Below are positions 5,444 to 63,601 of a stretch of 64,000 nucleotides of DNA, one piece after another. The stretch is from Escherichia phage vB_EcoM_JN03. Position 1 is the stretch's first letter. Every line of letters starts with the position of its first letter. The translations under genes and the position numbers were made by a program. The notes under the pieces were generated by a model. The model ran no database searches. It was not told the DNA's origin and saw nothing but the letters and a program-made list of their open reading frames with translations. Location of the stretch: the sequence record OR885871. One strand, 5' to 3'.

Positions 5444-5781
5444 ATGTATTTCTCGCGTGTTAGCAAACTTGGCTACATAATAATGTCATGCTCTGTTTAG
5501 ACCAAATAAAATATTTTACTTGTTGAATAAAAATCGCTTTCTTGTTGAACAATCCGTGCGTAATATACGAGTTGTGAGCTTTGCGAGCAACGAGTATTAT
5601 CACGAGCGAAGCGAGTAGACTGATAAAGAAAGGTTTTATTAAAACAGAATATTATAAATGCCGTCAGGCATTTATTTATCGCGCGTAGGGCAATTTATCA
5701 CTTGTTCTATAACTACAAACACGCGATACTAATTTGCGTCAAATATGACTTGAACCCCACTATATTTTGAGGATACAACTA

Positions 5782-6450
5782 ATGCAAGAGATCACTCTCT
5801 CCGAACGCACTTTACAACTGCTGGCTAACTTTGAAACCATCTGCCCCTCTATCGTTCTGGCACCTGGTAAAAAGTTGCGCACTGTTAACGATTCCAGTAC
5901 AGTTATCGCTATTGCCGACATTGACGAAGACTTCCCGTTCGAATTCCCGATTCTGGATCTGACCAAATTGCTGGCAATCCAGCGTCTGCCGAGTTTTAAA
6001 GGCGGTAAAATTGAAATGTCGGAAGACCACATTTTGCTGAAAGGTGAAAACTCCCAACTGCAATTCTGGCGTTCCGCTAAAGAACTGACTGTCGTTCCAG
6101 CAGACAGCATCGATCTTCCGTCTGTAGAATTTGAAGCAACAGTCACTCCTGAAAAAATGAAAGAGCTGACTCGCGCCTGTTCTACTCTGGGCCACAAAAC
6201 TGTACGCCTGGTGGCCAGCGGCGGTAAAACTCGTCTGGTGGGCACGACCACTACTATCGACAATTCCAACGATTACACTGTTGAGTTGGGTGAAACAACT
6301 CTGGGTGATTTTGCTATGCCTGTTGATGTGGTCAACCTGAAAATGATCGAAGGCAACTACGTGATCCGCGCCTGTGCCGAAATGCAACTGGTTAACTTCC
6401 AATCCGCAGACGGCACCATCAACTATTACGTCGGCATGCAGCTGGATTAA
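5782..6450 (+). CDS. 45: DNA polymerase sliding clamp (gp45-like)
   Basis: About 222 aa, GAGGA RBS, highly biased codon usage; loose similarity to T4 gp45 and immediately upstream of clamp-loader genes. Confidence 0.75.
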   Translation: MQEITLSERTLQLLANFETICPSIVLAPGKKLRTVNDSSTVIAIADIDEDFPFEFPILDLTKLLAIQRLPSFKGGKIEMSEDHILLKGENSQLQFWRSAKELTVVPADSIDLPSVEFEATVTPEKMKELTRACSTLGHKTVRLVASGGKTRLVGTTTTIDNSNDYTVELGETTLGDFAMPVDVVNLKMIEGNYVIRACAEMQLVNFQSADGTINYYVGMQLD

Positions 6451-6528: not shown

Positions 6529-7518
6529 ATGTCTAACATCACTATCGTCACAGATCAATACGCGTGGGAAAACAAATATCGTCCTGACAATCTGGATGAG
6601 ATCGTCCTCCCTTCAGACGTCCGTGCAAAAATCCATGGCTATGTTACATCAGGCAATGGAAACATCCCCTCAATGCTGTTCTATTCCCCTCAGCCTGGCA
6701 CGGGCAAGACTACTTCTGCTCTGGCTGTGTGCAACGAAATCGGTTGTATCAAACCGTTGATGATCAATGCGTCACTGGATAACAGCATTGATGTCATCCG
6801 TGACCGTGTTATTCAATACGCAACTGGCGTCAGTGTTTTCGGTGGCCGCAAAGTCGTTATCCTCGATGAAGTTGAGCGACTTTCCATGGCGGCGCAGGAA
6901 TCCCTGAAAGGCATCGTAGAGAAAGTCTCCAAAAACTGCTCCTTCATCCTGACGACTAATGCGAAACAGCGCGTTAACGAACCTCTGCGTTCCCGCTGTC
7001 GTGAAATTGATTTTATCTGGTCCGAAAAGGAAGCAGATGAAGTTAAACTCCAATTCATGCGTCGTTGCGCAACTATCCTGACAGAGGAAGGTATTCCGTA
7101 TGAAGCTGGTGTAATTGCTTCCATTGTGAAAGCATATTTCCCAGATAATCGCAAAATTATGGGAACTCTTCAGGATAATGCCACCACGTTTGGTAAAATC
7201 GATGAACGCGCTCTGGCACAGGTTAAAGCAGGGGAATTCCAAGCGCTGGTTGATTTCCTGAAAACCAATGATTGGGCTGGGATGAAGCAGTGGGTGACCG
7301 ACAACCAAAACTACATCACTGAAGATTTTTATTCCCGTTTCTTCCATTTCTGCGTTCCCCAGAACAAGGAAAAGACTCCTTTGATTCAAAAAGAGTCAAT
7401 CCCTGATCTGGTATGTGTCTGTGGTCAGTCTCAGATTGAACATCGTTCCGTCGGCGACGTCTGGTTACACGGCGTTTACTTCTTGACTAACGTCATGCTC
7501 AACATCAAATGGAAGTAA
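6529..7518 (+). CDS. 44: clamp loader large subunit (gp44-like AAA+ ATPase)
   Basis: Walker A PQPGTGKTT, Walker B ILDEVE, SRC-like arginine motif; AAAGAGG RBS. Confidence 0.9.
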   Translation: MSNITIVTDQYAWENKYRPDNLDEIVLPSDVRAKIHGYVTSGNGNIPSMLFYSPQPGTGKTTSALAVCNEIGCIKPLMINASLDNSIDVIRDRVIQYATGVSVFGGRKVVILDEVERLSMAAQESLKGIVEKVSKNCSFILTTNAKQRVNEPLRSRCREIDFIWSEKEADEVKLQFMRRCATILTEEGIPYEAGVIASIVKAYFPDNRKIMGTLQDNATTFGKIDERALAQVKAGEFQALVDFLKTNDWAGMKQWVTDNQNYITEDFYSRFFHFCVPQNKEKTPLIQKESIPDLVCVCGQSQIEHRSVGDVWLHGVYFLTNVMLNIKWK

Positions 7519-7522
7519 TATT

Positions 7523-7945
7523 ATGGCCGCTCCGTCACTGTTCGATTACCTCGGTGCGTTGAATAGCACCAAAGAGAATCTGTTGATGACCGAAGACCCC
7601 GAAATCAGAAAGGCATTTGATCCTTTCATGACTCGGCGCGGCCTTGCTCAGAGTAAAGACACGCTTGTGGTTGCTGAACAAATGAACCGCTTCCATGCCA
7701 TTACTCCTTGGATGCAATGGAACCTGGCGTTTCATAGCATTCCGGCAAAACGTCGCTATGACAAGTGGTCTAAGAAGGGAGCTATGGATCCTGATGTAAA
7801 ATTGATTTCTGAGTATTATTACATCAGTCCTGAAAAGGCTTCAGAATATGTTCGATTCCTGCCGAAAGAAGTCCTGGCTGAAATCAAGGCGAAGGTCGAA
7901 CGTTCCAACAGCAACGAAAAAGCCAAACCGCGCAAGGCTAAGTAA
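7523..7945 (+). CDS. 62: clamp loader small subunit (gp62-like)
   Basis: Follows gp44 with a 4-nt gap; IPAKRRYDKWSKK resembles the T4 gp62 segment as recalled. Confidence 0.65.
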   Translation: MAAPSLFDYLGALNSTKENLLMTEDPEIRKAFDPFMTRRGLAQSKDTLVVAEQMNRFHAITPWMQWNLAFHSIPAKRRYDKWSKKGAMDPDVKLISEYYYISPEKASEYVRFLPKEVLAEIKAKVERSNSNEKAKPRKAK

Positions 7946-8455: not shown

Positions 8456-9319
8456 ATGACAACTACATTTAATAAAAACGTGAGATTGAATTTGGCTTTT
8501 GGTAATGCGGCTGGAGATATTACAGCCCCTGACTTCGGTAAAATTCGCAATCAGGCCAAACTGGTTCTGGAAGAGACCCGCGAATTACTGGAAGCGGCTT
8601 ATTTCGATCATGACATCAAACTTGAGCTGGTGGCAACTCCAAAAGAAGACACCGATGATGTTGATATGGATAAAATCCTGAAAGCCATCATGGACGCTCA
8701 GGGTGATATCACAACTGTTAATGACGGCGTGGCCCATATCGCTGGGTTTAATGGTGATGAATGTTTACAACGCGTGTTTGCCTCTAACATGAGCAAATTT
8801 ATTCGCTCAGAAGATGAAGTCGGTCCGGCACTGGAATATTATTATTCACGCGGTTTCCCAGATGGCCAGTTACGCGTTGAAGGTGAATTCCCTCAGGCAT
8901 GCATCAAAGTGAATGAGACTGTGATGTGGAATGGCAAAGAATATCCGAAAGGAAAATTCCTGAAAAACATGGCTGTGTTCAAAGAGCCTGATTTCTCTGA
9001 TATGCTGACGAATACCCCTTCCCGTCAGATCAATGACATCGTTGCCAGCATGGCAATTGAAGAAGGTCAGGTATTTATTGATGATCTGAACGGCGTGGCG
9101 TTGGTATCTCCAAAAACGTTGGAAGTAATTCTTTCTATGGCAGTTGAAAAATCTTCTCGACCCGTAGATGTTAACGGCCAAATTGAAAGTTATGTGCCAG
9201 CGTATATCATTAACGATACCAATATGCCTAAGCTGTGTGGGGTGTGGGGTGCTAATGTTCGTGTATACGCGTGCGCACCTGTTCAAAACACTGTGACACA
9301 CCTCTCTCGCTTCGATTAA
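8456..9319 (+). CDS. MazG-like all-alpha NTP pyrophosphohydrolase domain protein (N-terminal) with unknown C-terminal domain
   Basis: N-terminal AKLVLEETRELLEAAYFDHD and NMSKFIRSE resemble MazG/HisE EExxE/D motifs; 287 aa. Confidence 0.35.
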   Translation: MTTTFNKNVRLNLAFGNAAGDITAPDFGKIRNQAKLVLEETRELLEAAYFDHDIKLELVATPKEDTDDVDMDKILKAIMDAQGDITTVNDGVAHIAGFNGDECLQRVFASNMSKFIRSEDEVGPALEYYYSRGFPDGQLRVEGEFPQACIKVNETVMWNGKEYPKGKFLKNMAVFKEPDFSDMLTNTPSRQINDIVASMAIEEGQVFIDDLNGVALVSPKTLEVILSMAVEKSSRPVDVNGQIESYVPAYIINDTNMPKLCGVWGANVRVYACAPVQNTVTHLSRFD

Positions 9320-9388: not shown

Positions 9389-10612
9389 ATGAAAGATAAA
9401 CCATATGACATCCCATATTGCGGTGTCCGTGAAACCAAAATCAAATCAGCCCATCCTATGTTAAGTTCATTCCACCGCCAGCTGGCATATGAATGGATGA
9501 GGGATCGTTATGCGATACATGTCAAGAAGGACGTGCAATGCCTTCCAGCGCCATGGACGGATAATCCGGTATTACGCCAAGTCAAGTTTTGTAACGTGCG
9601 GAGAGAGCACGATAGGCAGTCTCGAAATTTGATCAATAATATCATCCTCGATCAGGATCTCACGCTATCTGACAAAATGTTCAACTGTGTATTGTTCCGC
9701 ATGTACAACATGTGGGAACCTATACAGGCTTTGGGTGGTCCATGGACGATCGAAGAATTCGGAAACATAAATCTTGAATGGTGTCGAGATGTTCTTCAGG
9801 AATTCGAATCTAAAGGTGGCAAAGTTTTCACCAATGCGTTTAATACAGGCGGTCTGAAACAATGCCTGGCTTTCCCTGAACTAGTTGTCAACCACAAGGA
9901 GCAACGCTTTGGCGGCATGAAAGTAAAAGTCCATCGGGTTGGCGGTGTTATAGATGAAATGGATTACAAGGTTGCCAAGAAGCTGGCCGAAGATAATCCT
10001 GGTGAATACAAAATAGAAGGCTGGGAACCATACATGCCGATGCGAGTCATCCGCTCTTTGAAGGCATTCGTCAACAAACACCCTCATTACTTTGATCGCC
10101 TCAGGGAATTTAGCCGTCCCGACTCTGTTTACCAGGCGATGTATGACGACATTGAGGGGCTTGGACCATTCTTGGCATACCAGATTTGGGTTGATTTTAC
10201 ATACATCGATGAATATCCATTCAGTGAAAACCACTTCACTATCGCTGGTCCAGGTTGCCGTGCTGGTATCGATCTGTTATTTTTGGACAAGGACGGCATG
10301 ACGCATGAAGAATGCATATTCTGGGTTCGTGATCATCAAGATCAATTGTTCGCTCAGTATGGGTATAAACGTAATGAATTTTGGTCGGCAGAAGAACCGG
10401 AAGATCGTTGCATGAATGTTATGCAGCTGGAGAACATGTTCTGTGAACTTCAGAAATATACCCGCTGCGTTGAGGCGGTGATGCGCGGGGAGAAACCTCG
10501 AGGAAAGGTGGGGTATGACGGGAATGGCAGTGCGTATAAGCAACGTTGTGATGAAGTCGTCCTCAAACGTGGTTCCGTGAATCTTTTAGAACGTTTGAAG
10601 AAACCTGAATAA
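9389..10612 (+). CDS. hypothetical enzyme-sized protein, 407 aa (candidate nucleotide/base-modification enzyme)
   Basis: ATG with GAGAGGA RBS; no P-loop; no family recognisable by eye; occupies the position where T4 has DNA polymerase. Confidence 0.55.
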   Translation: MKDKPYDIPYCGVRETKIKSAHPMLSSFHRQLAYEWMRDRYAIHVKKDVQCLPAPWTDNPVLRQVKFCNVRREHDRQSRNLINNIILDQDLTLSDKMFNCVLFRMYNMWEPIQALGGPWTIEEFGNINLEWCRDVLQEFESKGGKVFTNAFNTGGLKQCLAFPELVVNHKEQRFGGMKVKVHRVGGVIDEMDYKVAKKLAEDNPGEYKIEGWEPYMPMRVIRSLKAFVNKHPHYFDRLREFSRPDSVYQAMYDDIEGLGPFLAYQIWVDFTYIDEYPFSENHFTIAGPGCRAGIDLLFLDKDGMTHEECIFWVRDHQDQLFAQYGYKRNEFWSAEEPEDRCMNVMQLENMFCELQKYTRCVEAVMRGEKPRGKVGYDGNGSAYKQRCDEVVLKRGSVNLLERLKKPE

Positions 10613-10727: not shown

Positions 10728-12746
10728 ATGGCAGAATTCAAACCCTTCGCAACGGCAGTTAATAACAACGTGCTGGCGATGTCCGCAACTGGTCTGTTCA
10801 TGACCAATATCGATAAAGATGCTCTTTGGGATCTGTATCTGGAATCTTTCCCTGCTGGTACCAACCCGCTCTACCGTGAGCGTACCGAGCACGACTGTAC
10901 CTGCTGTAAACAATTCATCCGTAACATCGGCGGTGTGGTCACCATCGACTCCGACCTGAACGTGATTTCCATCTGGGACAACATTGATCTGGGTAATGAA
11001 TATGACGTGGTGGCTGCGGCGCTGTCGGCGTATGTCAAACAACACGCAATCGTCGATGTTTATTTTAACGATTCTGCCAAAGTCGGCCTGTCTCACAATC
11101 ACGAATCTGGTGAAGATGGCAAAATCCGTACTTATAATCATTTCCATACCCAATTACTTGGTAGCTATGTTCTGCGTCCGGACGCAATCGCTTCGAAAAA
11201 AGGTGAAATCCGCCAGGCTATTGAATTGTTTGAACGCGGTCTGCGTGAAATTACTCTGGAATCAGCTGAAATCGTTCTGGAACTGATTGACCAGAATTCT
11301 CTGTATCGCGGCGCAGAACACAAAGCAGCAGTGAAGGGATTTGTTGAAACCAAAAAGGCATATGAACAAGTCCCCGAATCAGCCCGTTCTCTTTGGGCAT
11401 GGCATACTGGATACCGTTCAAACAATCATGTTCCACACGGCATCCGTAACACAGTTATCGGCACTCTGCTGACAGATATCAGCGAAGGCGTGGAACTGGA
11501 AAAGGCTGTTAAATCGTTTGAATCCAAAGTTGCTCCGGCGAACTACAAACGTCCGACAGCGCTGGTTTCAAAATCCATGATCGAAAACGCTCAGAAAGAA
11601 GTTATTGCTCTGGGTTTGGAAGACTCACTGGCGCGTCGTTATGCGGTTTATGATGATCTGACAATCAACAACGTTCTGTTCGCAGATCTGGCTGCTCAGA
11701 AAGCGATGGATCCGTTTGCACAGCTGGCCGCCGAAGTGAAAACTCCGACCAAGTCCCTGGAAAAAGTTGAAGAGATCAGCGTTGATGATTTCCTGAGCAA
11801 TGTTCTGCCAAAAGCGCATTCAATGGAAGTGCTTGTAGAGAATTCTCATACTAGCAACCTGATGTCCCTGGTTGCTCCGGCGAACCCAGATGCGCCTAAC
11901 TTGTTCAAGTGGAACAACGGTTTCTCCTGGTCTTACAATGGTGAAGTGGCCGATTCCATTAAAGAACGTGTAAAGGCTGCTGGCGGTAAAGTTGACGGGT
12001 ATCTGCGCGTTTCCTTGGCGTGGCACAATAACGACGACCTCGATCTGCATATGTTCAACAACATGGAGCACGTTTACTTCCGCGATCGCCGCTCTATGAC
12101 AGGTGCCCATCTGGATATCGATATGAACGGTATGGATGGTATTGATCCAAACCGCGCTCCGGTGGAAAATATCATCTTTACAGATGAAAGCAAGCTGCGC
12201 GATGGTGAATACCGTTTCGAAATCCACAACTACAATCAACGTGAAAAAATCGACGAAGGGTTTGAAGTAGAAGTAGAATACAAAGGCGCAACGCATCGTT
12301 TCAGCCATCCTGGCCTGAAAGATCAGGGGCGTATCACTGCAGTCATCCTGACTGTTAAAGACAAACAAGTTGTTGGCATTAAGTCCGAACTGGCTAATGT
12401 TGATAAGTCTAAAGAAGTTTGGGGTATCAAGACTGCGACCTTCCAGAAAGTACAGCTGGTCCTGAACTCACCAAACCATTGGGATGGCGAGCAGACAGGC
12501 AACAAGCACGTGTTCTTCATCCTGGAAGGTTGTGCTAATCCTGAAGGTACTCGTGGTTTCTACAACGAATATCTGAAGCCAGAACTGGATAAACATCGTA
12601 AGGTTTTTGAAATGTTGGGTAGTAAAATGAAAGTCCAGCCGAATGAAAACCAACTGTCCGGTCTGGGATTCTCGACGACGCAACGCAACCACGTGTTCGT
12701 CAAAGTGTCCGGCGCGTTTAACCGTACTGTAAAAGTCATTTTCTAA
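10728..12746 (+). CDS. large hypothetical protein, 672 aa, codon-optimised
   Basis: AGGAAG RBS; strongly host-optimal codons; Cys cluster HDCTCCKQF; acidic segments WHNNDDLDLH and HLDIDMNGMDGID; no Walker motifs. Confidence 0.7.
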   Translation: MAEFKPFATAVNNNVLAMSATGLFMTNIDKDALWDLYLESFPAGTNPLYRERTEHDCTCCKQFIRNIGGVVTIDSDLNVISIWDNIDLGNEYDVVAAALSAYVKQHAIVDVYFNDSAKVGLSHNHESGEDGKIRTYNHFHTQLLGSYVLRPDAIASKKGEIRQAIELFERGLREITLESAEIVLELIDQNSLYRGAEHKAAVKGFVETKKAYEQVPESARSLWAWHTGYRSNNHVPHGIRNTVIGTLLTDISEGVELEKAVKSFESKVAPANYKRPTALVSKSMIENAQKEVIALGLEDSLARRYAVYDDLTINNVLFADLAAQKAMDPFAQLAAEVKTPTKSLEKVEEISVDDFLSNVLPKAHSMEVLVENSHTSNLMSLVAPANPDAPNLFKWNNGFSWSYNGEVADSIKERVKAAGGKVDGYLRVSLAWHNNDDLDLHMFNNMEHVYFRDRRSMTGAHLDIDMNGMDGIDPNRAPVENIIFTDESKLRDGEYRFEIHNYNQREKIDEGFEVEVEYKGATHRFSHPGLKDQGRITAVILTVKDKQVVGIKSELANVDKSKEVWGIKTATFQKVQLVLNSPNHWDGEQTGNKHVFFILEGCANPEGTRGFYNEYLKPELDKHRKVFEMLGSKMKVQPNENQLSGLGFSTTQRNHVFVKVSGAFNRTVKVIF

Positions 12747-19314: not shown

Positions 19315-19764
19315 ATGTTCCTTACATCCTTTATTGACTGGATGAATATCATAAATGGTCTGAGGATCCCTGTTGGGAACCTCGGGCTTTCTCGTTCTTC
19401 TATGCCGCAAATCGATGCCGACAAACAAGAAGATTTTCACAAATATCTTGAAGACAACGGCGTGTCCATAGATGCTGCGCAAGTACCCATCAAAATGCTT
19501 CGTCTTACCCAGAACGAAATCAATAAAATGAAGGTCTGGAAGATTATGAAGCAGATCAGAAATAAGAAGCCCATGGGTCGAGTTTGGGTGTCTTCTGACA
19601 ATTACGTTGTTGACGGGTCTCACCGATTTGTCGCTGCGTTGAACATGGACGGCAAACAGCGCATGAAGGTCTACAAAGTTGATTTGCCAGCGATGGAATT
19701 TGTTAAACTCGCTAAACAGTTTCAGGGTGTGCGATACAGAACGGTCAGCGATACCCGTTTCTGA
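19315..19764 (+). CDS. ParB/Srx-fold (ParB-like nuclease domain) protein
   Basis: LRLTQNEINKM...VVDGSHRFVAA resembles the ParB N-terminal DGxHR motif. Confidence 0.5.
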   Translation: MFLTSFIDWMNIINGLRIPVGNLGLSRSSMPQIDADKQEDFHKYLEDNGVSIDAAQVPIKMLRLTQNEINKMKVWKIMKQIRNKKPMGRVWVSSDNYVVDGSHRFVAALNMDGKQRMKVYKVDLPAMEFVKLAKQFQGVRYRTVSDTRF

Positions 19765-19843
19765 ATACGATAGTTTATTGAAACCCTTTACTCAACATGG
19801 TGACATCCCTATCATTTTATCCAATGAAATAAGGAGAATCACC

Positions 19844-20533
19844 ATGAAACGTTTAATCATCGGGGTTGTGCTGGCTGGTCTGGCACTTCCTGCCACCGCC
19901 AAGCTGAACTCCACAGGTGAAAAACTGTGGTCTGATCTTTCCTACTGTGCTGGGTTCTCCCAAGCTGTTGCTATAGACAAAACTGGTTCCATAGAGAACT
20001 TTGCTGAACTCTGGGCCACAGGTAACGTCACAGATGCCGTTGTAAACGCTGGTATTGAGTTTAATCGATATAAGCAAGGCGCGTTCAACCTGAAAGGATA
20101 TATGAACGACGAAGCATTTAACCGAGGAGGCATGGAGGCGAGCGATCTTATTATGACTGGTCGTATGGACACACAAGGACGAATGACCGTAAGACAGTGC
20201 CGTTCTCTCCCTTCTCCAGCATTACAAAAAGGTGTGCAGGTTGGCCGACGTCAGCTGGACCTCATCAATGATGGAAACCAATGTATCCGAGTATTTGAAT
20301 ATAGCGCTGATCAAGAATCTGATCGAAGACTGAAAAAGGAATGGCGGACTCGCGCCCTTGGCCTGAGAGCATGGCTGGTGGAAAATGATCATTATTATGA
20401 AGACCGTGTTCAGAATGGTTTGAAAGATCTTTCCACTAATTTGTCTGTCAATCTTGATGATCCCAGGCTTGCCCGTGAACTCAAGCAAACAAGAATTGAC
20501 TGTGATAATATGATGAAGGAGAACGAAAGATGA
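19844..20533 (+). CDS. secreted/periplasmic protein with signal peptide, 229 aa
   Basis: AAGGAG RBS; N-terminus MKRLIIGVVLAGLALPATA is a classic signal peptide. Confidence 0.55.
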   Translation: MKRLIIGVVLAGLALPATAKLNSTGEKLWSDLSYCAGFSQAVAIDKTGSIENFAELWATGNVTDAVVNAGIEFNRYKQGAFNLKGYMNDEAFNRGGMEASDLIMTGRMDTQGRMTVRQCRSLPSPALQKGVQVGRRQLDLINDGNQCIRVFEYSADQESDRRLKKEWRTRALGLRAWLVENDHYYEDRVQNGLKDLSTNLSVNLDDPRLARELKQTRIDCDNMMKENER

Positions 20534-29463: not shown

Positions 29464-31797
29464 ATGAGCAATGTAGACCTATTATCAAAATTTGGTTCGC
29501 TGTTGAAAGAAGCGGACACTCCTGTTTCTGTTGAAGCACCATTTGAAATCCGTGGGGAAATTACCCACAAACTGACTTTCCATCGCGGTCGCGCTAAAAA
29601 CTTCCGTTCCATCGGTAATGAATTCATGGAAATTGATTACCAACGCAATTCGGCAACCTTGGTTACATCCGATGACAATGGGGCGGGCAAATCTACAATG
29701 CTTGTTTGGCTGTTGTTCTTCGTTCTGTATAATGACACATACAGCAAGAAAGAAAAGAAAGCCGGATTAGTCAATTCCCAAAACAAAAAGGAATGCGTGG
29801 GTGAAGTTGAGTTCTCTACTCGCGGAAGTGAATGGAAAGTCCGTCGTGGTATCAAACCTGATTTCGTAGAAGTCTATCAGATGGTAGACGGTGAGTGGAA
29901 GAAGGTCGTGAATGATGCGGCCAAAGCCGACATGAACAAATATATCGTGAACCTGATTGGCGTAGACCAGAAGATGTTTGAGAACTCCCTGGTTCTGGGC
30001 AAAGAGAAGTTCATCCCATTCACGGAAATGTACACTGCCGACCGTCGCGCTATGGTAGAGACAATCTGGGATTTGGGGTTCTTCAGTCTGATGAATGAAG
30101 ATGTAAAAGCATCTATCAAGACAGTAACGAATGAACTCACGACGGTCACCAATGATTACGCCTTTCATGATGTGAATCTAAAAGGCCAGCAAGCGCAGTT
30201 GGAACAGATCAATAATTCCAATGCGATGATCCAGCAACAATCTGCGGATATTCTTGTCCAAGAGAAGGAACGTCTGAATAGCCTGAATTCAGATATCGGC
30301 GCAGTGCAGGAACAACTGACAGAGTCCCGTGCTCAAGACTCTAAATTGGAATCAGAATTATCAGATGTTCGAAATAGACTGAATGCCGAAATGAAAGGGG
30401 ATATCGATGCCATCAATGAAGAGTATGCGGCCAAAATCCAAGCGGTTCAGGATGAGGCTGATACCAAGGCTGAAGACTATGAGCGTATCGAGGTGTCTGA
30501 TGGCGAACGTTCATTACAAGAAATTCGGGAGAGAATGGCGGTAGTCGCGGAACGTAAAAATGATCTGGTCAGCCAACGGAATGCTAACCTGGATGAACTG
30601 AACAAAGCATTAGCGCGGCGTCAGCAGGGTGAGAACTTCCGTATCAAATTCGTAACAGAAATGGAAGGACATGAATCTGCCATCAAACGTTTCCACGATA
30701 TGGGCACTTGCCCTACGTGTACGCAATTAGTGTCGGACGATACCAAATCACGCATTGAAAGTCAATATTATCCACAAATCAGTGAACTGACTGACAAGAT
30801 TCTTCAGGTTGATACAGCCCTAGAAGAAGTGAATTCCCTGATTGAGAATTACAATGTCAGAGATTCAGAATTATCTTCTCAGATTTCGGTTATTGACAAA
30901 GAACTGGATGCTTTGCGCAATGAAATCCGAGAAGCGGAATCAGCGATCGCTACATTAAAACGCGACATCCAAGGATTCTATGATGTCGCTGCTGTTGAGA
31001 AAACATCTTTACAGCGGGAACAACAGTCCAAAATTAACGACGTCCTCAAGGCCGTAGACACCCGTTACGAAGATATCACGACGTCAATCCGTCAAGCGCG
31101 TGAGCAGCTCTCTAAGAGTATCAACGACACGGCTGATAAACTCACCAGCCTGAAATCACGCCGTGCCCCTCTGGAGGCATCCATTGCCGATTTAGAGCGT
31201 AAATTGGCGGTTAAGCCGACACCAACTGACGCCCTGGAAGGAGAGATCGCTCGCATCACGGCATTAATGGAAGATCTGAATGCGCGGCGCGTAGAGTTGG
31301 ATGAGAAATTGCAAGACCTGAACCATCTTCTGTTCTTCCTAAAAGATGATCAGACCAAGGCTCGAATTATCAGCCTGTATTTGCCTTTCCTCAATAGTAA
31401 AATAAACGAGTATCTTGAAGCACTCAATATGTTCTTGGATATTGCTGTTGATGATACATTTGAAATCACCATGAGCGCTGCAGGTCGTAAAGGGCAAAGC
31501 ATCTTCTCGTTATCTACTGGTCAGCGTAGTCGCCTGAACCTGGCTGTGACATTAGCTTTACGAGATGTTGCAAACCTCAAGGCGTCGGTGCAATGTAACC
31601 TGTTTGTGCTAGATGAAATCCTTGAGAACATGAGCGAGCGCGGCGTACAAGAATCGGTTGAGATGCTGAAGCATAAATTTGGCGGGAACAATCTGTTCGT
31701 TATCAGTCAACGCGAGCAGGAATTCCAAGAGTATTTCCAACACAACATCCGTTATGGTCTGCGTAATGGCATGACTGAAGTGATTAAGAAGGATTGA
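29464..31797 (+). CDS. 46: Rad50/SbcC-like ATPase (gp46-like)
   Basis: N-terminal Walker A DDNGAGKST, long coiled-coil middle with a CPTC zinc hook, C-terminal signature LSTGQRSRL and Walker B LFVLDE. Confidence 0.85.
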   Translation: MSNVDLLSKFGSLLKEADTPVSVEAPFEIRGEITHKLTFHRGRAKNFRSIGNEFMEIDYQRNSATLVTSDDNGAGKSTMLVWLLFFVLYNDTYSKKEKKAGLVNSQNKKECVGEVEFSTRGSEWKVRRGIKPDFVEVYQMVDGEWKKVVNDAAKADMNKYIVNLIGVDQKMFENSLVLGKEKFIPFTEMYTADRRAMVETIWDLGFFSLMNEDVKASIKTVTNELTTVTNDYAFHDVNLKGQQAQLEQINNSNAMIQQQSADILVQEKERLNSLNSDIGAVQEQLTESRAQDSKLESELSDVRNRLNAEMKGDIDAINEEYAAKIQAVQDEADTKAEDYERIEVSDGERSLQEIRERMAVVAERKNDLVSQRNANLDELNKALARRQQGENFRIKFVTEMEGHESAIKRFHDMGTCPTCTQLVSDDTKSRIESQYYPQISELTDKILQVDTALEEVNSLIENYNVRDSELSSQISVIDKELDALRNEIREAESAIATLKRDIQGFYDVAAVEKTSLQREQQSKINDVLKAVDTRYEDITTSIRQAREQLSKSINDTADKLTSLKSRRAPLEASIADLERKLAVKPTPTDALEGEIARITALMEDLNARRVELDEKLQDLNHLLFFLKDDQTKARIISLYLPFLNSKINEYLEALNMFLDIAVDDTFEITMSAAGRKGQSIFSLSTGQRSRLNLAVTLALRDVANLKASVQCNLFVLDEILENMSERGVQESVEMLKHKFGGNNLFVISQREQEFQEYFQHNIRYGLRNGMTEVIKKD

Positions 31798-32299: not shown

Positions 32300-32564
32300 A
32301 ATTCAGATTGCTTGTGATATCGCTGTCGAGTTATGGAATCAGCGAAACAAACATTATCAGGTGACGTTGACCCCAAAGCGTTATCTAGAGCAAGGTGGCT
32401 TAATAGTCGTTGATGCCGTGTTAGGTTTCAACAAATATACTGACATGCAAATCTTGGACGGGGATTTCACTATTGCTTCCAATACAGCTTGGGATGATCC
32501 TATGGAATTTGTCTACGGTTGGTTGGAATGCATAGAGGAATCATACCATCTGATCTACGAATAA
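32280..32564 (+). CDS. hypothetical protein, 94 aa
   Basis: ATG start overlapping the upstream gene; terminator follows. Confidence 0.45.
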   Translation: MSEEKDEIQIACDIAVELWNQRNKHYQVTLTPKRYLEQGGLIVVDAVLGFNKYTDMQILDGDFTIASNTAWDDPMEFVYGWLECIEESYHLIYE

Positions 32565-34020: not shown

Positions 34021-34380
34021 ATGGCTATCACCACAAAAACTGAATTGAACGCGATCCTGAAAGAAGCTGGCTTCGGTAGTATCAAACGCCAGGGCAAGGT
34101 TTTACGCGATGGCGGTAAAATCGTAAAGGGTATCATGTTGGGAAGTACTGGCCCGTTGAGCATCAGCTCCCCTCAGTATGACAATCTTCGTAAACTGGCG
34201 CGTGAACTTCTCCAAGAAGACCTCCATATCACGACGCAAGAAACCAATTATGTGGTTTTGGAATGCAACAAATTCATCGTCAGCCTTTACATCTGCAGCA
34301 CCCGCTCATATCCGGTGTCTGAAGGTTATGACCCAATGTATCTGACCCATTATGCTCAGGTTACTGTCAAAGTAAAATAA
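34021..34380 (+). CDS. hypothetical protein, 119 aa
   Basis: GAAGGAA RBS; terminator-like hairpin downstream. Confidence 0.45.
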   Translation: MAITTKTELNAILKEAGFGSIKRQGKVLRDGGKIVKGIMLGSTGPLSISSPQYDNLRKLARELLQEDLHITTQETNYVVLECNKFIVSLYICSTRSYPVSEGYDPMYLTHYAQVTVKVK

Positions 34381-36903: not shown

Positions 36904-37449
36904 ATGAAACCGTTTATCGAATATTTTAAAGAACAAGCTCAACAACCGCAAACACATGGCGGCATACAAGGCAAAAGTGTAACCATCACCAAACAGGCCG
37001 ACGGAACCCAATGGTGTACTGGTGCCACCGTAACCCAGATCACTCCAGATAATCAGGCCGACATCTATAATCTGGAATTGACTAATGGCAACACCATCAA
37101 AGTGAAGCTAACTCCAGACCAGACCCACGGCATTACCCAAGGCCAAGAAGTCGTTGCCGTCCATGATGGGTTTGAATTCTTCTTCGGCAAGTCGGCTGAC
37201 AAAGGTCAGGTTACTGAAACGGAAGGCTGGCGTTTCGTCGGTGACCGTGGCGCTCATATTCTGATGTATGACGCAAAAGTTGGCGGTGCCTCCACTATCC
37301 TTCGCAGTCCAACAGATCGAACCAAATTTGTTGGTGGTCTCATCAACGGCAGAAAAATTTTGGGTAATTCCCCAGAAGAACTGGCGGCAAAATTAGGTCT
37401 TCCAAAAATTCCTGATAATTTATTAAAATCATTTTTTGGTAAAAAGTGA
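36904..37449 (+). CDS. hypothetical protein, 181 aa
   Basis: AGGAGA RBS; C-terminal LGLPKIPDNLLKSF motif. Confidence 0.5.
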   Translation: MKPFIEYFKEQAQQPQTHGGIQGKSVTITKQADGTQWCTGATVTQITPDNQADIYNLELTNGNTIKVKLTPDQTHGITQGQEVVAVHDGFEFFFGKSADKGQVTETEGWRFVGDRGAHILMYDAKVGGASTILRSPTDRTKFVGGLINGRKILGNSPEELAAKLGLPKIPDNLLKSFFGKK

Positions 37450-58158: not shown

Positions 58159-59118
58159 ATGTCCTATATTCTTCATATCGAGTCCGGCCTGAAATTTGAA
58201 ATTGATGGTAAAACCGCTGCTGATCTTCAAGCAGAAATCAAAGGTGCAGACCTTATCATTGGCAATGTAACATTACGCCGTATGATGGAAGGCGTCCTCC
58301 AGTCAGCCAACGGCTTTGAACTCATTGAAGGTCTGAGCCAGGAAGAGAAAGAAGAAACTCTCGAAGCTCTTGACCGCGCTGAAGCCGAAAAAGTTAAACC
58401 GACCGAAGATGCGGGGGTTAAACAGGGCGACGGTGAATCAAATCCGGTGATTGACGCCGAAGAAACGGTTGGGCAACCTGTCGGTGATCAAAATTCCCAG
58501 ACCGTCGAAGACGGTTCTCTTGAAGTCAACAAAGACGGTTCCATTTCCCTGGTAGTTGAAGGCGAAGAAGTTCTTGACGAAGAAGCGCAAGCCCGTGCTG
58601 AAGAAGTTCGCCGTCGCATGCTGGGCACAACCGTTGCTGAAGCAATCGCCGACGTTGAAAATCCGAAGGATGATCAGGCTTTAGCGAACGCGAAGGCGGT
58701 TCTGGCCAAGAAATCTTCTGAAATGCGCCCTGCATCTTCTACCGAAGAACGCAAGCGTCGTCATAACAAGCGTGAAGAAATGGTTGAAGCGGCTCGCGCA
58801 TCCAATTATGGTCCTATCCTGGCTGCGGTTGAATCGGGGGTTGTGCCTGGGGTTTATTTGAGCTATGTGAATCCGGATATGCGCTGGTTCCAGTTCCCTG
58901 TTACCGAATTGGCAGATGAAGCCAATCCACACGCCCGCACCAATACTTATGTTGATCTGGCGCCGATCGTTTCCGGCGGCTGGGGGTTCAGTCTGTATGT
59001 GAATGGTAAATCATTCACCAAACGCCAGAAAATCAAAGAAACTGATGCCGAATCTCTGGTGAAAGCAATCAATGAATGGTTACCACAGGCGTTGGCCGAA
59101 GCGAAAGCTGCTGCGTAA
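58159..59118 (+). CDS. acidic hypothetical protein, 319 aa, codon-optimised
   Basis: Own early promoter and downstream terminator; central region very rich in Glu/Asp. Confidence 0.55.
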   Translation: MSYILHIESGLKFEIDGKTAADLQAEIKGADLIIGNVTLRRMMEGVLQSANGFELIEGLSQEEKEETLEALDRAEAEKVKPTEDAGVKQGDGESNPVIDAEETVGQPVGDQNSQTVEDGSLEVNKDGSISLVVEGEEVLDEEAQARAEEVRRRMLGTTVAEAIADVENPKDDQALANAKAVLAKKSSEMRPASSTEERKRRHNKREEMVEAARASNYGPILAAVESGVVPGVYLSYVNPDMRWFQFPVTELADEANPHARTNTYVDLAPIVSGGWGFSLYVNGKSFTKRQKIKETDAESLVKAINEWLPQALAEAKAAA

Positions 59119-59145
59119 TTTAATTCAGAAGCGTTCAATAGATAA

Positions 59146-59175
59146 AGGGGCTGCTATAATAGCAGCTCCTTTTGT
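59146..59175 (+). terminator. rho-independent terminator
   Basis: AGGGGCTGCT-ataat-AGCAGCTCCT hairpin followed by TTTTGTTT. Confidence 0.6.
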
Positions 59176-59190
59176 TTATTGGAGCATGTC

Positions 59191-59853
59191 ATGTCTTATT
59201 CGCTCAAAGGGCTGTTGAAGCGCCCTGTGCATTTGTTTGTCAAACCACCTGCTGTAGAAGGGGAATATTCGGCACGAGGAGAGTTGTATTACATTAAAGG
59301 CTCCAATGGTAGTGGTAAGTCTACTGTGCCTTCTTATTTGGCGGAGAATGATCCTCAGGCGTATGTCGTAACCCATAACAGTAAGATCATGCTCACGGTT
59401 TGTCCATCTTACAATATTGTCTGTGTCGGTAAATATGACAAGTCTAAGTCCAAAGGGGTTGATTCTCTGAAGGATACTGAGCAGATGTTGTTCGCGTTGT
59501 CTATTGCTGACCAACCAGAATACCTGAAATATGATGTGATTTTTGAAGGCATCATTCCGTCTACATTATTGAGTTCTTGGATTCCCCGCCTGACACGCCC
59601 ACCACGTGAATTGGTCGTCCTCTTTATGGATACCCCTCTTGAAACCTGTATTGCCCGTGTTAAATCGCGTAACGGTGGCGCAGACTTCAATGAAAGTCTG
59701 GTGGTCGAGAAGTGGGAGAGAGTTCATGATCACCGTCAACGGCATAAAGGCTTGTTCCCTACCGTTCCCGCAGGTATGATGAAGTCCGATGGCCTGACTG
59801 TAGAGCAGGCTGTTTTTGCGTTTCTCAATCGTGATTTTGGGAGTATTGATTGA
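59191..59853 (+). CDS. P-loop kinase (candidate nucleotide or DNA-base kinase)
   Basis: Classical Walker A GSNGSGKST near the N-terminus; about 220 aa; first gene of the nucleotide-metabolism block. Confidence 0.6.
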   Translation: MSYSLKGLLKRPVHLFVKPPAVEGEYSARGELYYIKGSNGSGKSTVPSYLAENDPQAYVVTHNSKIMLTVCPSYNIVCVGKYDKSKSKGVDSLKDTEQMLFALSIADQPEYLKYDVIFEGIIPSTLLSSWIPRLTRPPRELVVLFMDTPLETCIARVKSRNGGADFNESLVVEKWERVHDHRQRHKGLFPTVPAGMMKSDGLTVEQAVFAFLNRDFGSID

Positions 59854-60893
59854 TGGAAATTTTTGCTCTAAATAATAATGACATGCTTAAGAAAGCTGTG
59901 TTGGCTATCCGTGAACACGGGATTGAGTCAGATCCTGGCAACGCAGAGATTAACACTGACGGCACTCGTTTTATTGATGGCGTGACGATTACGGTGGCTG
60001 ACCCTCGAGATCGTTGGTTATCTGTTGAAGGTCGTAATTCATCTGCGCTTGCTGCGATTGGTGAAACATTCTGGGTTCTGTCAGGCCGCAATGACATCCG
60101 TTTCCTTTCCCGAGTCCTCCCTCGTGCGGTCAACTTCTCGGATGATGGCGTAACGTGGCGTGGTGCTTACGGACCACGTCTGTACAACTATGGCCAGCTG
60201 GATAGTGTCATCAACCGTTTGCGCAATAACCCCAACACCCGTCAGGCGTATCTCACCATCTATGATCCAGCTCTGGACTCAGATGAAAGTTTGGCCGCGC
60301 ATAGTGAAACAGGAGAAGCCAAGACTAAAGACATGATCTGTAATCTGGCTTTATTGTTCAGTATAACAGAAGGGCGGTTGAACATCACGGTCATCAATCG
60401 AAGTCAGGATGTCCTCTGGGGTATGAGTTCAATCAACTTCATTGAATTCTCCATTTTGCAGGAAGTATTGGCGAAGGTGCTGAACGTGGAAGTCGGGAAT
60501 TATAAACTGTTCTCGAATAACCTTCACTATTATAACAACGAAGTCAGTCGGAAGCAACTCGGGAACATAACCAACAAGACCCGAACTTCTATTGGTATGT
60601 ACAATTCTTTGTTGGAATTCTCTTCGGAAAAGGTGAAATGTCAAGAAAACATCCAAAATCTGTTCCTCGGTGTACTTCATCGCTGTGACATTGGCAGTGA
60701 ATTTGGTAAAATCAGAGAGCATTTGAAGGAATATAACGCAGATACAGGTTTGATGATGGATATGTCATATTGTCTGTGGTGTCGCCTTAATGATACTAAA
60801 ATTGATAAACGTCGGATTGCTGATGATGGTCTTCGTAATGCGTTGTTGCAATCACCCGTTGACCGTAAACACATGTGGGGGTATGGGGAATGA
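59853..60893 (+). CDS. thymidylate-synthase-family pyrimidine hydroxymethylase (dUMP/dCMP hydroxymethylase-like)
   Basis: NPNTRQAYLTIYDP...C...RSQDVLWGM parallels T4 gp42 NPDSRRGIMIYTRP...C...RSNDVVFGF; an Asn lies near the base-specificity position (tentative). Confidence 0.7.
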   Translation: MEIFALNNNDMLKKAVLAIREHGIESDPGNAEINTDGTRFIDGVTITVADPRDRWLSVEGRNSSALAAIGETFWVLSGRNDIRFLSRVLPRAVNFSDDGVTWRGAYGPRLYNYGQLDSVINRLRNNPNTRQAYLTIYDPALDSDESLAAHSETGEAKTKDMICNLALLFSITEGRLNITVINRSQDVLWGMSSINFIEFSILQEVLAKVLNVEVGNYKLFSNNLHYYNNEVSRKQLGNITNKTRTSIGMYNSLLEFSSEKVKCQENIQNLFLGVLHRCDIGSEFGKIREHLKEYNADTGLMMDMSYCLWCRLNDTKIDKRRIADDGLRNALLQSPVDRKHMWGYGE

Positions 60894-61459
60894 AATACCC
60901 TAATCTAGAATTTTTTACGGGGCGCAAGCGCTCCGGCAAGGACTTCTGTTTGGAGTCCCTCATCAGCTTTCACCATTTACAGGGTGATATGGACATCCAG
61001 CGCTTATCTTTCTCAGACGAGTTGCGTCGGGTGGCTCATTACATCTATCCTTGGTTGCCAGAGGAAGTAGAGGACGACATCAAGGACTTGCCATATGTTC
61101 ACCCAGATAACCCCAAGGGATTAACCCCAAGGCAGATCTGGCTTCATCTCGGCAGCGATACGGGCTTGCGTTACGTACAACCAGACCTGTTTCTGTCATT
61201 CTTTAAACGATATCAACTTCCTTTGGTGGAACAGAACCCACACGTTCATTATATCGTGAGTGATTTGCGCACCCCTCAGGAATATGAATGGGCGCTGAGC
61301 ACTAAATGTCCCATCACCCGCATTTCAAAGGCGGATCGCGGTGGTATCATAGAGGATGACATTGAGGCTTTCATTGATAAGATGGAAGTTGATTATGAAT
61401 TTGTCAATCCGTTTGAAGGTTGGCAACCGTTCGTCAAATTTTATAGGGATCGGAAATGA
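60890..61459 (+). CDS. 1: deoxynucleoside monophosphate kinase (gp1-like)
   Basis: Unusual P-loop FFTGRKRSGKD matches T4 gp1 FLSGVKRSGKD; ATGA coupling to the hydroxymethylase. Confidence 0.7.
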   Translation: MKYPNLEFFTGRKRSGKDFCLESLISFHHLQGDMDIQRLSFSDELRRVAHYIYPWLPEEVEDDIKDLPYVHPDNPKGLTPRQIWLHLGSDTGLRYVQPDLFLSFFKRYQLPLVEQNPHVHYIVSDLRTPQEYEWALSTKCPITRISKADRGGIIEDDIEAFIDKMEVDYEFVNPFEGWQPFVKFYRDRK

Positions 61460-62001
61460 TCACAGCAGAGCATATTAAAAGTCTGCTCGAACTTCAAAAG
61501 GCCACCAACGTGGCCTATTTTGGGGAAGAGTGGAAGAAGCGCTGGACCGAAGTGGCGATAGCAAACTCCATCTATCGTGAGTGGGCAGAGTTTCTAGACG
61601 AAACAACCATAGACTGGAAGATCTATGGGGGTGGTAAGCATTGGCGACAAGTGGATGCCATATACGAGTTGGTGGACGTTGTTCACTTCATGCTCTGTGC
61701 TGTCCTGCAGGAGGAAGACAAACCACACGATATTCCAGAAATGGTGAGATTCGTTCAGGCGCAGCCAATTCAAACCCCTCACGACCTCAGGAAAGTGACT
61801 GAACTGTTCACGTATTTCATGTCACACCCTCTTCGGAATGTTTTGGCTACCTTCTTGGCAGCGGCTTGCGGATATTTGGGGCTGGATGCTGAGACCTACA
61901 TGCTGGCCCACAAGCGCAAGAACGATCGCAATCGTCTACGTGCTGCTGGCGGTGCGAACTATGATAAGTCCGCGGAAACCCCTTTGACTCTGGAGTTCTA
62001 A
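61456..62001 (+). CDS. all-alpha nucleotide pyrophosphatase candidate (gp56/dimeric-dUTPase-like)
   Basis: Position and size match T4 dCTPase; acidic helical segments (WAEFLDETTIDW...VDVVHFMLCAVLQEED); assignment tentative. Confidence 0.4.
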   Translation: MITAEHIKSLLELQKATNVAYFGEEWKKRWTEVAIANSIYREWAEFLDETTIDWKIYGGGKHWRQVDAIYELVDVVHFMLCAVLQEEDKPHDIPEMVRFVQAQPIQTPHDLRKVTELFTYFMSHPLRNVLATFLAAACGYLGLDAETYMLAHKRKNDRNRLRAAGGANYDKSAETPLTLEF

Positions 62002-62531
62002 TGTTTACAGTCGTCGTATCATATTACGCGGAACACGCCCCGCAAATGGCACAGAACTTTGCTGAGTTTATTAAACCTGGCAGACATGTCGTTATCGCGA
62101 CCAAATTCAACAAAGAACCAGATGGTGCGGCTACTGTAACGCAACATATTACAACACCAGAGCCGGAAACACTTTTTAAACGCATTGAAGATTTTGCTTT
62201 TGGCGGGGAAGAAATTCCAGAGTCATTACAGCATATCTATTTTGAAGATGCGATATATTATGTTCATGCTATTCCAAAGGATGTTACAACTGAACAAATG
62301 ATGTATATCCTGAATATCGCATTGAATGTTTCTTGTGTCAACAGGGCACAGCACAATCGTCTGCGTAATATGTATTTAACAGAACGCGGGGGTTCCGAAA
62401 TTAACGATGAAAAACTCCCGTCAATAATGGCGATTCATGAAGCAATCAATATATTGTCCAAGAAAGTCTTGGGCACCGATTTATTAATTACGATCAACAA
62501 GCAAGAGGAAACGAAATGGCCGATTCATTGA
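62001..62531 (+). CDS. hypothetical protein, 176 aa
   Basis: TAATG coupling to the upstream gene. Confidence 0.45.
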   Translation: MFTVVVSYYAEHAPQMAQNFAEFIKPGRHVVIATKFNKEPDGAATVTQHITTPEPETLFKRIEDFAFGGEEIPESLQHIYFEDAIYYVHAIPKDVTTEQMMYILNIALNVSCVNRAQHNRLRNMYLTERGGSEINDEKLPSIMAIHEAINILSKKVLGTDLLITINKQEETKWPIH

Positions 62532-63601
62532 TGGCTCGCATGCTCAAGACAGCAAAGAAACTGGACCCGAATGCCGAAGTGCTGTCAAAGACCGATGCGC
62601 TGAAGCCTGACATTATTTGCAGTACGGGTATTCCTATTCTGAATTTGGCCTGGTCCGGTCGTATTGATGGTGGTCTGATATCAGGCATCAAACAGTTGGT
62701 GGGGGATTCTCGTACATTCAAAACCATGTTTGGGCTGGTGGATGTTAAGGCTTACATGGATAAGTTTCCTGATGCAATTTGTATCTTCGCGGATTCAGAA
62801 GGCGGTGCGAATGAAAACTACTGGACATCTATGGGTATTGACATGGACCGTGTCTTGTATCTGCCGATTGAAAACGTTGAAAAGACGAAGATCAAGCTGA
62901 CACAGCTTCTGAACGATGCACAGAAAGGTGACAAGATCATCGTATTCATTGACTCAATCAGCCAGTTGCCGTCTACCAAAGAAGTTGATGATGCCATCGC
63001 GGGCAAAGACACGCAAGATATGACCCGCGCTCGCGCTCTCAATAGTTTTTGGCGTGTTATCACCCCGTTGGTCACTGAAAAGAAATTCGTTTTGGTATGG
63101 ATCAACTCGTACTATGATGAAATCGGGAACCAATACGCCGAGCCGAACATCAAAGGCGGTAAACAGGGGTTCCTGTCTTCTAACCAATTGTGGTTCATCA
63201 CGCGTTCTCAAGTTAAAGAAGACAAAGACCTTTTGGGATGGCAGTTTACAGTCAACATTATGAAAGGCCGCTTTGTCCGTGAAAAAGCCAAGTTCCCTGT
63301 CACTGTGTTGTATGAAGGCGGTATTGACCGTTGGTCCGGTATGTTAGAAATTGCGCGCATGCTGGGGTATGTGGATTTGGTGAGTGGTTCTTGGTATCAA
63401 CGCACTGCCAAAGGCGGGTTTGATCCAGAAAAAGAAAAGAAATATCGTAAGGCAGAGCTGGGGGATGACTTCTGGTATCCGCTGCTGGAAAACCCAGACT
63501 TTGTTGACGATGTGAACAACATGTTCGGTATCTCTCAGAGTTCGGTTATGCCTGCAGATATGCTGGAGCGCCTCGATAATGTCATCAAAACAACCGAGTA
63601 A
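62516..63601 (+). CDS. uvsX: RecA-like recombinase UvsX
   Basis: Walker A GDSRTFKT, DAICIFADSE and IIVFIDSISQL blocks, DMTRARAL and GIDRWSGMLE parallel T4 UvsX. Confidence 0.85.
   Translation: MADSLMARMLKTAKKLDPNAEVLSKTDALKPDIICSTGIPILNLAWSGRIDGGLISGIKQLVGDSRTFKTMFGLVDVKAYMDKFPDAICIFADSEGGANENYWTSMGIDMDRVLYLPIENVEKTKIKLTQLLNDAQKGDKIIVFIDSISQLPSTKEVDDAIAGKDTQDMTRARALNSFWRVITPLVTEKKFVLVWINSYYDEIGNQYAEPNIKGGKQGFLSSNQLWFITRSQVKEDKDLLGWQFTVNIMKGRFVREKAKFPVTVLYEGGIDRWSGMLEIARMLGYVDLVSGSWYQRTAKGGFDPEKEKKYRKAELGDDFWYPLLENPDFVDDVNNMFGISQSSVMPADMLERLDNVIKTTE

Follow-up and report, generated by a model that had tools for sequence, protein, structure and literature searches.

We analysed a window of 64,000 nucleotides of the genome of Escherichia phage vB_EcoM_JN03 (OR885871), with a focus on a block of four nucleotide-metabolism genes on the + strand, from position 59191 to 62001. 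The block encodes a P-loop kinase, a homologue of thymidylate synthase (TS), a deoxynucleoside monophosphate (dNMP) kinase and an all-alpha nucleoside triphosphate (NTP) pyrophosphatase (Table 1). Each gene overlaps the next by its stop and start codons (TGATG, ATGA, ATGA and TAATG, in order along the series), and hence the four are translationally coupled. The series runs on into a gene for an ACT-like domain protein and then into uvsX (62516-63601). A sequence-only reading had described four coupled genes here, and the open reading frames (ORFs), their coordinates and overlaps, the family matches and the motifs it cited were all recovered. The TS-homologue ORF begins one codon earlier, at a TTG, in the program-made list, and we count its residues from the ATG; an alternative GTG start is possible for the dNMP kinase at 60875.

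We are highly confident that this block makes up the nucleotide-pool part of the ViI-type pathway of thymidine hypermodification, together with its first DNA-level part. This is a known system: its chemistry was worked out between 2018 and 2021 (Lee et al. 2018 PNAS; Lee et al. 2021 NAR), and the block is one more Kuttervirus copy of it. The window belongs to a Kuttervirus (Ackermannviridae), of the ViI-like Salmonella phage type. Positions 59000-62600 are 99.9% identical to Salmonella phage vB_SenAc_BPS3 and have matches in 270 phage records, nearly all of them Ackermannviridae, so the arrangement is not a chance pattern. Phage ViI (Vi01), of the same genus, has the same genes in the same order and with the same overlaps, gene for gene from Vi01_061c to Vi01_056c. 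Identities to ViI are 95% for the kinase, 93% for the TS homologue (Vi01_060c) and 89.5% for the pyrophosphatase; relative to Vi01 the window is antiparallel, starting at about 98 kb of that genome and descending to about 34 kb. Mass spectrometry coupled to liquid chromatography (LC-MS) showed that 5-(2-aminoethoxy)methyl-deoxyuridine (5-NeOmdU) takes the place of about 40% of T in the DNA of ViI, CBA120, CBA6 and Vibrio phage 1.255.O (PMC5889632). The sequence-only reading had proposed a genome with bases derived from hydroxymethyl-uracil (hmU). The near-identity to BPS3, the synteny with Vi01 and the published nucleoside analysis bear this out, and what that reading did not recognise is that the whole system had already been published.

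The source genome is that of a mosaic Kuttervirus isolate, distinct from ViI and not BPS3 itself, since the block is nearly identical to BPS3 and the first 25 kb of the window (1-25000) are about 97% identical at best to any record, with CBA120, KE30 and Se-F as top matches. The TS homologue of CBA120 is only 76% identical, although this phage is among the best matches to the first 25 kb. In Salmonella phage 38 (KR296692 / NC_029042) the match to 59000-62600 comes in two pieces over a span about 590 bp longer, with an annotated HNH endonuclease. This arrangement points to the insertion of a homing endonuclease in the nucleotide-metabolism block of some Kutterviruses.

Table 1. Features of the window discussed in the text, with positions counted from its first nucleotide.
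Feature	Position	Strand	Basis and remarks
Terminator-like hairpin, 13-bp stem, T-rich tail	59144..59172	+	strong; between upstream gene and kinase gene
5-hmdU DNA kinase (predicted), HMUD1 type, ViI gp67 orthologue	59191..59853	+	220 aa; PF18748 E=2.4e-113
dUMP hydroxymethyltransferase, thymidylate-synthase family (putative, by homology)	59853..60893	+	346 aa from ATG; PF00303 E=1.8e-15
dNMP kinase (predicted), T4 gp1 family	60890..61459	+	189 aa from ATG; phrog_139 E=1.6e-48
All-alpha NTP pyrophosphatase (predicted), dimeric-dUTPase-related	61456..62001	+	181 aa; PF08761 E=6.4e-9; phrog_173
Phage ACT-like domain protein, coupled to the block	62001..62531	+	PF24021 E=2.5e-86; TAATG overlap
HMUDK_hel protein, ViI gp160 orthologue	9389..10612	+	407 aa; PF18723 E=1.7e-83
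MazG-like pyrophosphatase	8456..9319	+	phrog_2144 E=1.8e-135, match from ORF residue 30; Vi01_131c annotation
Sliding clamp, gp45 homologue, proposed docking partner	5782..6450	+	weak PF09116, E=8e-4; Vi01_133c-135c annotation
Clamp-loader genes	6529-7518 and 7523-7945		Pfam matches; Vi01_133c-135c annotation

The DNA kinase and the thymidylate-synthase homologue

The first product of the block matches PF18748 over its full length (376.8 bits for a cut-off of 27, profile positions 1-196 of 196) and carries the Walker A motif GSNGSGKS at residues 37-44 (59299-59322). Its alignment with Vi01_061c (YP_004327432, gp67), encoded at the equivalent genomic position, is gap-free. ViI gp67 is a P-loop kinase of 5-hydroxymethyl-deoxyuridine (5-hmdU) in DNA, which turns the 5-hmdU of SP8 DNA into a 5-phosphomethyl nucleotide of 418 u, and kinase activity was also demonstrated for PhiW-14 gp37, another orthologue of the window protein (PMC8989533). 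We predict, by orthology to the proven ViI enzyme, that the window protein is a 5-hmdU DNA kinase. This substantiates an earlier proposal, made from the sequence, that the P-loop kinase was a candidate for this activity. A sequence search of the PDB with the kinase gave nothing significant.

Databases name this family differently. RefSeq calls it 'terminase small subunit' in Vi01_061c, MP1412_13 and PhiW-14 gene 37, as does phrog_800, which matches the window protein at E=3.3e-69. Reading the protein as a small terminase subunit on the strength of these names is, in our judgement, practically untenable. In the phrog_800 profile of 511 positions, the match is confined to positions 4-220, and a separate gene for the small terminase is present in both PhiW-14 and Vibrio phage D532. 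The Walker A P-loop kinase fold with its full-length PF18748 match and the proven activity of ViI gp67 and PhiW-14 gp37 also contradict the names. The published biochemistry rules this function out and the label is an annotation error, which has propagated in RefSeq through Vi01, MP1412 and PhiW-14 and would mislead automated pipelines. Beside gp67, ViI has a second kinase, gp243 (HMUD2). Vibrio phage D532 has no gp67-type kinase and Vibrio phage 207E48.1 has one (p0102); hence the HMUD1 kinase is lineage-variable and HMUD2 conserved.

We aligned the TS homologue with MAFFT to its Vi01 counterpart, E. coli ThyA, T4 gp42, SPO1 gp29 (annotated as dUMP hydroxymethylase) and the M6-like enzyme of MP1412; the ThyA and T4 gp42 sequences were exact matches to PDB chains. 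The nucleophile Cys163 (60339-60341), the segment R183-S184-Q-D186 (60399-60410), His225 and Tyr227 are invariant in this alignment. Asn195 (60435-60437) falls in the column of ThyA Asn177 and T4 gp42 Asp179, which holds Asn in the window protein, Vi01, SPO1 gp29, MP1412 and ThyA, and Asp only in T4 gp42. A one-residue insertion precedes Asn195, and the placement rests on sequence alignments, of which two independent ones agree: a HMMER alignment to the thymidylate synthase 6auj places the residue identically. Mutagenesis of ThyA N177 and gp42 D179 has associated Asn with uracil specificity. The sequence-only reading had noticed an Asn, rather than the Asp of gp42, near the specificity position after the RSxD motif, and the alignment puts it in that very column.

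The T4 dCMP hydroxymethylase gp42, dNMP kinase gp1 and dCTPase gp56, which make hydroxymethyl-dCTP, share three pool-level roles with the block, and an earlier analogy with this T4 set holds at the level of roles. Together with the CMP hydroxymethylase MilA being the solved structure nearest to the TS homologue by sequence (E=1.8e-17), the parallel could suggest a pathway to hydroxymethyl-cytosine as in T4, with a dCMP hydroxymethylase of the gp42 type. We give this almost no credence. T4 gp42 was not among the 60 best PDB matches, the adjoining kinase belongs to a family specific for hmU, and published nucleoside analysis found normal dC and modified T. The Asn at the Asp179 column and the published LC-MS rule the dCMP hydroxymethylase out: the specificity of T4 is for cytosine, whereas that of the block is predicted to be for uracil.

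Among characterised proteins, the TS homologue is most closely related to the dUMP hydroxymethylase SPO1 gp29, with 35% identity over the catalytic core and unrelated C-terminal halves. The two have in common the Asn, the Cys, the RSxD motif and a segment, FSDDGV, also found in the MP1412 enzyme, where ThyA has the folate-binding WDEW. The TS homologue resembles SPO1 gp29 (tblastn 6e-27) more than E. coli ThyA (2e-6), and matches phrog_5131 (1e-60) better than phrog_160, which groups T4 gp42 with the general TS family (8e-28). Most GenBank records label the gene 'thymidylate synthase' or thyA, the protein has every catalytic residue in common with ThyA, and plain thymidine makes up about 60% of T in ViI DNA. 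One might then suppose an ordinary thymidylate synthase making dTMP, with hmU arising otherwise. We regard this as very unlikely, given the kinship with SPO1 gp29 and the replacement of WDEW. The protein also scores 35-57 bits against the NCBIfam thymidylate-synthase equivalogs, far below all of their cut-offs (108-405). Moreover, its gene overlaps that of the hmU-specific DNA kinase, in a phage family whose DNA carries an hmU-derived base. We infer that the TS homologue is a dUMP hydroxymethyltransferase. Its product would be 5-hmdUMP, by homology and because ViI-like DNA carries an hmU-derived base. In SPO1 the pathway ends at 5-hmdU, the kinase and transferase classes being absent according to the 2018 comparison (Lee et al. 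2018).

Pool enzymes and the hypermodification pathway

The third product of the block has the P-loop GRKRSGKD (60920-60943), which follows the G-x-K-R-S-G-K-D pattern of T4 gp1 (GVKRSGKD). Both proteins fall in phrog_139, T4 gp1 at 1.8e-65 (the sequence was verified against PDB 1DEK). Direct BLASTP between the two gives a weak match (E=0.003) confined to the P-loop. Pfam and NCBIfam searches returned no model and the PDB sequence search nothing significant. We assign the protein as a probable dNMP kinase of the T4 gp1 family, whose substrate would be 5-hmdUMP by the logic of the pathway (PMC8989533).

The fourth product matches PF08761 (dUTPase_2) at 36.7 bits for a cut-off of 22.9, over profile positions 2-159 of 162. 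It has a weak match to the dimeric dUTPase of C. jejuni, 1W2Y (E=2e-4), and scores 25 bits against the NCBIfam dUTPase equivalog, for a cut-off of 300. There was no T4-like phage among the listed tblastn matches (E<=1e-5). The protein is 68-79% identical to those of PhiSH19 and pertopsoe, for which the neighbouring kinase, TS homologue, dNMP kinase and ACT-like protein are 97-100% identical, and only 9 of 351 records reach at least 99% identity. This divergence hotspot points to allelic replacement or diversifying selection. A MazG-like protein is a candidate for a second house-cleaning NTPase that edits the pool; its gene follows regA and the clamp-loader genes, 70 bp upstream of that for the gp160 orthologue.

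Experiments on ViI delimit what these enzymes would feed. Five products (gp67, gp160, gp226, gp243 and gp247) together reconstitute 5-NeOmdU (PMC5889632), and purified proteins define a route from the kinase to gp247, a serine:DNA transferase, and then to gp226, a pyridoxal phosphate (PLP) decarboxylase (PMC8989533). On orthologues 93-95% identical, published experiments show that the kinase is active, that the transferase and the decarboxylase carry out their steps and that virion DNA contains the modified base. The product of the hydroxymethylase and the substrates of the dNMP kinase and of the pyrophosphatase are predicted from homology. In the pathway we propose, the TS homologue would transfer to dUMP a one-carbon unit of methylene-tetrahydrofolate and resolve the intermediate with water to give 5-hmdUMP, Asn195 selecting uracil. 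The gp1-type kinase would then make 5-hmdUDP, and the host NDP kinase 5-hmdUTP, while the pyrophosphatase most likely clears dUTP, and possibly dTTP, from the pool. Once the phage polymerase had incorporated 5-hmdU, the kinase of the block would move the gamma-phosphate of ATP onto the hydroxymethyl group in DNA, giving 5-phosphomethyl-deoxyuridine (5-PmdU). The gp247 orthologue (ADDT) would swap this phosphate for the side-chain oxygen of serine, through a covalent Cys-C6 intermediate, and the PLP-dependent gp226 orthologue would decarboxylate the product to 5-NeOmdU. Hence the chemistry downstream of the hydroxymethyl base differs between systems, with glucosylation in T4 and phosphorylation followed by amino-acid transfer in the ViI type.

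The late steps are encoded elsewhere in these genomes. A tblastn search of the window with ViI gp226, gp243 and gp247 found no orthologues, the only signal being that of gp243 with its paralogue, the kinase of the block, which was weak (E=0.42). Vi01 carries the three genes at 140-152 kb, next to that for DNA polymerase, and at the corresponding place BPS3 encodes PALP, HMUD2 (PF18747) and ADDT (PF18724) proteins.

Several observations weigh against assigning the block to this pathway. The published experiments concern other isolates, and the first 25 kb of this one are only about 97% identical to any record. The ViI TS homologue was named dUMP hydroxymethyltransferase in the literature from homology and context, not by assay. 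ViI has the second kinase gp243, with which the gp67-type kinase may share the work in vivo. The pyrophosphatase, whose substrate is a prediction, is unusually divergent among Kutterviruses. Finally, about 60% of T is unmodified, so that either dTTP is used as well or a further step turns 5-hmdU back into T.

The ACT-like gene sits between the pyrophosphatase gene and uvsX. Domains of the ACT type commonly bind amino acids or other small ligands. It is conceivable that the ACT-like protein provides a regulatory link to the serine-dependent pathway.

The HMUDK_hel protein

Some 50 kb upstream of the block, the window encodes a 407-aa protein that matches PF18723 (HMUDK_hel) at 280.7 bits for a cut-off of 25 and is 82% identical to Vi01_130c (orf00160, gp160). 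It shows a helix-hairpin-helix, DNA-glycosylase-like fold, and an AlphaFold model built with 20 homologues has a mean predicted local distance difference test score (pLDDT) of 85. Invariant in the family are a GPGC motif (from 10247) and E348-N-x-x-C352-E353 (from 10430). The latter recalls the active site E243-T244-x-x-C247 of PUGT (PaMx11 gp46, a 5-PmdU glycinyltransferase, PDB 8z2m), to which equivalence could not be established. A PDB search with the family profile did not find PUGT, its top match being a spurious one to WDR24, and the protein sequence found nothing significant there. The gene is followed by a 672-aa ORF (10728-12746, phrog_1735); the Vi01 annotation splits this region in two, as Vi01_129c and Vi01_128c, both orf00158.

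The sequence-only reading had proposed this orphan enzyme for a role in hypermodification. As the orthologue of gp160, one of the five reconstituting products, the protein belongs to the hypermodification system; it is not the demonstrated transferase, which is gp247 (ADDT), encoded outside the window. That it nevertheless acts as a group transferase attaching the side chain seems unlikely to us. Neither this protein nor its M6 paralogue gp55 is required in the published reconstitutions. Purified gp247 by itself transfers serine to 5-PmdU DNA (PMC8989533). In M6, lysates with gp54 and gp51 alone gave the glycine-transfer product, without gp52, gp53 or the HMUDK_hel paralogue gp55. The protein matches PF18723 and has no match to PF18724, the ADDT family of the proven transferases gp247 and M6 gp51. 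Comparison with gp247 by BLASTP and hhalign revealed no sequence or profile similarity beyond the tail: in hhalign against a three-sequence ADDT alignment, HMUDK_hel aligned over the last 15 residues only, with no core homology. Gene fusions suggest instead a role linked to the kinase. SP10 gp186 is an HMUDK_hel-kinase fusion according to the 2018 comparison (Lee et al. 2018), and one of the 909 homologues of the 407-aa protein, P0120, is fused to a PF18748 kinase domain. The HMUDK_hel gene also adjoins the kinase gene in M6-like phages.

The Pseudomonas phage M6 / MP1412 cluster has the kinase, HMUDK_hel, ADDT, PLP and TS-homologue families in common with Kuttervirus. Its full content is ADDT, PLP, radical SAM, HMUDK, HMUDK_hel, Nmad5, dU-hmt and an HD nucleotidase. 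In M6 these genes are contiguous, whereas in Kuttervirus they are spread over three loci, and M6 has a radical-SAM isomerase and makes 5-(2-aminoethyl)-deoxyuridine (5-NedU). In Vibrio phage D532, VPHD532_0191 (19365-20063 of the stretch examined) lies between the genes for HMUDK_hel and the TS homologue, and its 232-aa product carries an HExxH-like motif, HELTHAHQH.

C-terminal tails and a proposed link to the sliding clamp

HMUDK_hel, the HMUD2 kinase and the ADDT transferase share a short C-terminal peptide with the DNA polymerase of their own phage. The peptide varies among four lineages and is matched within each: VNLL..L.KK in Kuttervirus, K[KR]LW in the Vibrio phages, SV.D[FL]F in Cygsa01 and TT..LG.FF in PhiW-14. 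This covariation suggests that the enzymes dock on the sliding clamp.

In the window, the tail of the 407-aa protein is SVNLLERLKK (10574-10603) and its extreme C-terminus SVNLLERLKKPE. Residues 380-407 of the model have a pLDDT below 50, as a disordered stretch with a short helix at 399-402. The Kuttervirus tails read …GSVNLLERLKKPE for HMUDK_hel, …SSVSLLGLMRKA for HMUD2 (gp243) and …TSVNLMSLLKR for ADDT (gp247). That of the DNA polymerase reads …KRRVNLLSMMGKKG, with the same putative clamp-binding motif, RVNLLSMMGKKG, as the 407-aa protein. In the Vi01 stretch examined, the tails lie at 30080-30125, 32490-32534 and 34270-34312. The Kuttervirus motif pattern matches only those four proteins among 353 ORFs in 84 kb, a pattern built after the fact from the same four tails. 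Two window proteins with similar tails, UvsX (…DMLERLDNV) and the product of 36904-37449 (…DNLLKSFFGKK), were not counted, since neither fits the strict motif and the Vibrio counterparts of both are without the KLW end.

All four proteins of the Vibrio phages D532 and 207E48.1 end in K/R-K/R-L-W. An LW ending is found in only 5 of the 235 annotated genes of D532, namely those four and a 99-aa Cys-rich protein (hypergeometric P about 2e-6), and the gp33-like coactivator of D532 has a near-identical KLF end (…KTRKLF). The 99-aa protein, VPHD532_0077 (5591-5890 of the stretch examined), is encoded beside the ligase gene and ends …KTKRLW. In Pseudomonas phage Cygsa01, the tails are …KASVMDFFS for the DNA polymerase, …KNVFDLF for HMUD2, …NDLMGFFQ for ADDT and …KSVLDLF for HMUDK_hel. 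The large terminase of this phage (TerL; 1-1710 of the stretch examined) ends …GGSLDDFFNN. Cygsa01 TerL and the D532 99-aa protein are possible further clients of the clamp. Delftia phage PhiW-14, which lies outside the Ackermannviridae, has …AKLGAFFV for the DNA polymerase, …TSLGGFAAT for gp33, …HGLGGFFKG for the kinase gp37, …TGLGSFFR for the putrescine transferase gp109 and …TTLAQFAP for gp72; here the coactivator gp33 shares the peptide too. The gp67-type kinase and the PLP enzyme are without the tail. So is, unlike Kuttervirus gp247, the M6-like ADDT of the siphovirus MP1412 (291 aa), and the annotation of the 12.6 kb examined of MP1412 contains no clamp gene.

The clamp and clamp-loader genes of the window lie about 3 kb upstream of the 407-aa protein gene. 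In T4, gp43, gp33 and gp55 carry highly similar and interchangeable C-terminal clamp-binding motifs, each after an unstructured linker (PMC2988020). We consider it reasonably probable that, in phages with a T4-type replisome, the HMUD2 kinase, the amino-acid/polyamine:DNA transferase and HMUDK_hel are tethered to the sliding clamp by a C-terminal peptide copied from their own polymerase and gp33, which would couple modification to the replication fork. The tailless gp67-type kinase and PLP decarboxylase would then act free, off the clamp. Such tethering would parallel the coupling of DNMT1 to PCNA. The clamp is unmentioned in Lee 2018 and Lee 2021, and one literature search gave no report of a tail-clamp link to hypermodification; the polymerase-type tail shared by hypermodification enzymes is thus apparently unreported.

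The amino-ether-modified thymine of the ViI type blocks host nucleases, which explains why the DNA of such phages resists many restriction enzymes and can be awkward to sequence or clone. An interaction between the T4 alpha-glucosyltransferase and gp45 was proposed earlier and has recently been disputed. If the tails described here bind the clamp, they would be relevant to this dispute, over whether the DNA-modifying enzymes of phages ride on the clamp, and would offer a concrete mechanism by which hypermodification comes to be 'coincident with or immediately after replication', an old observation.

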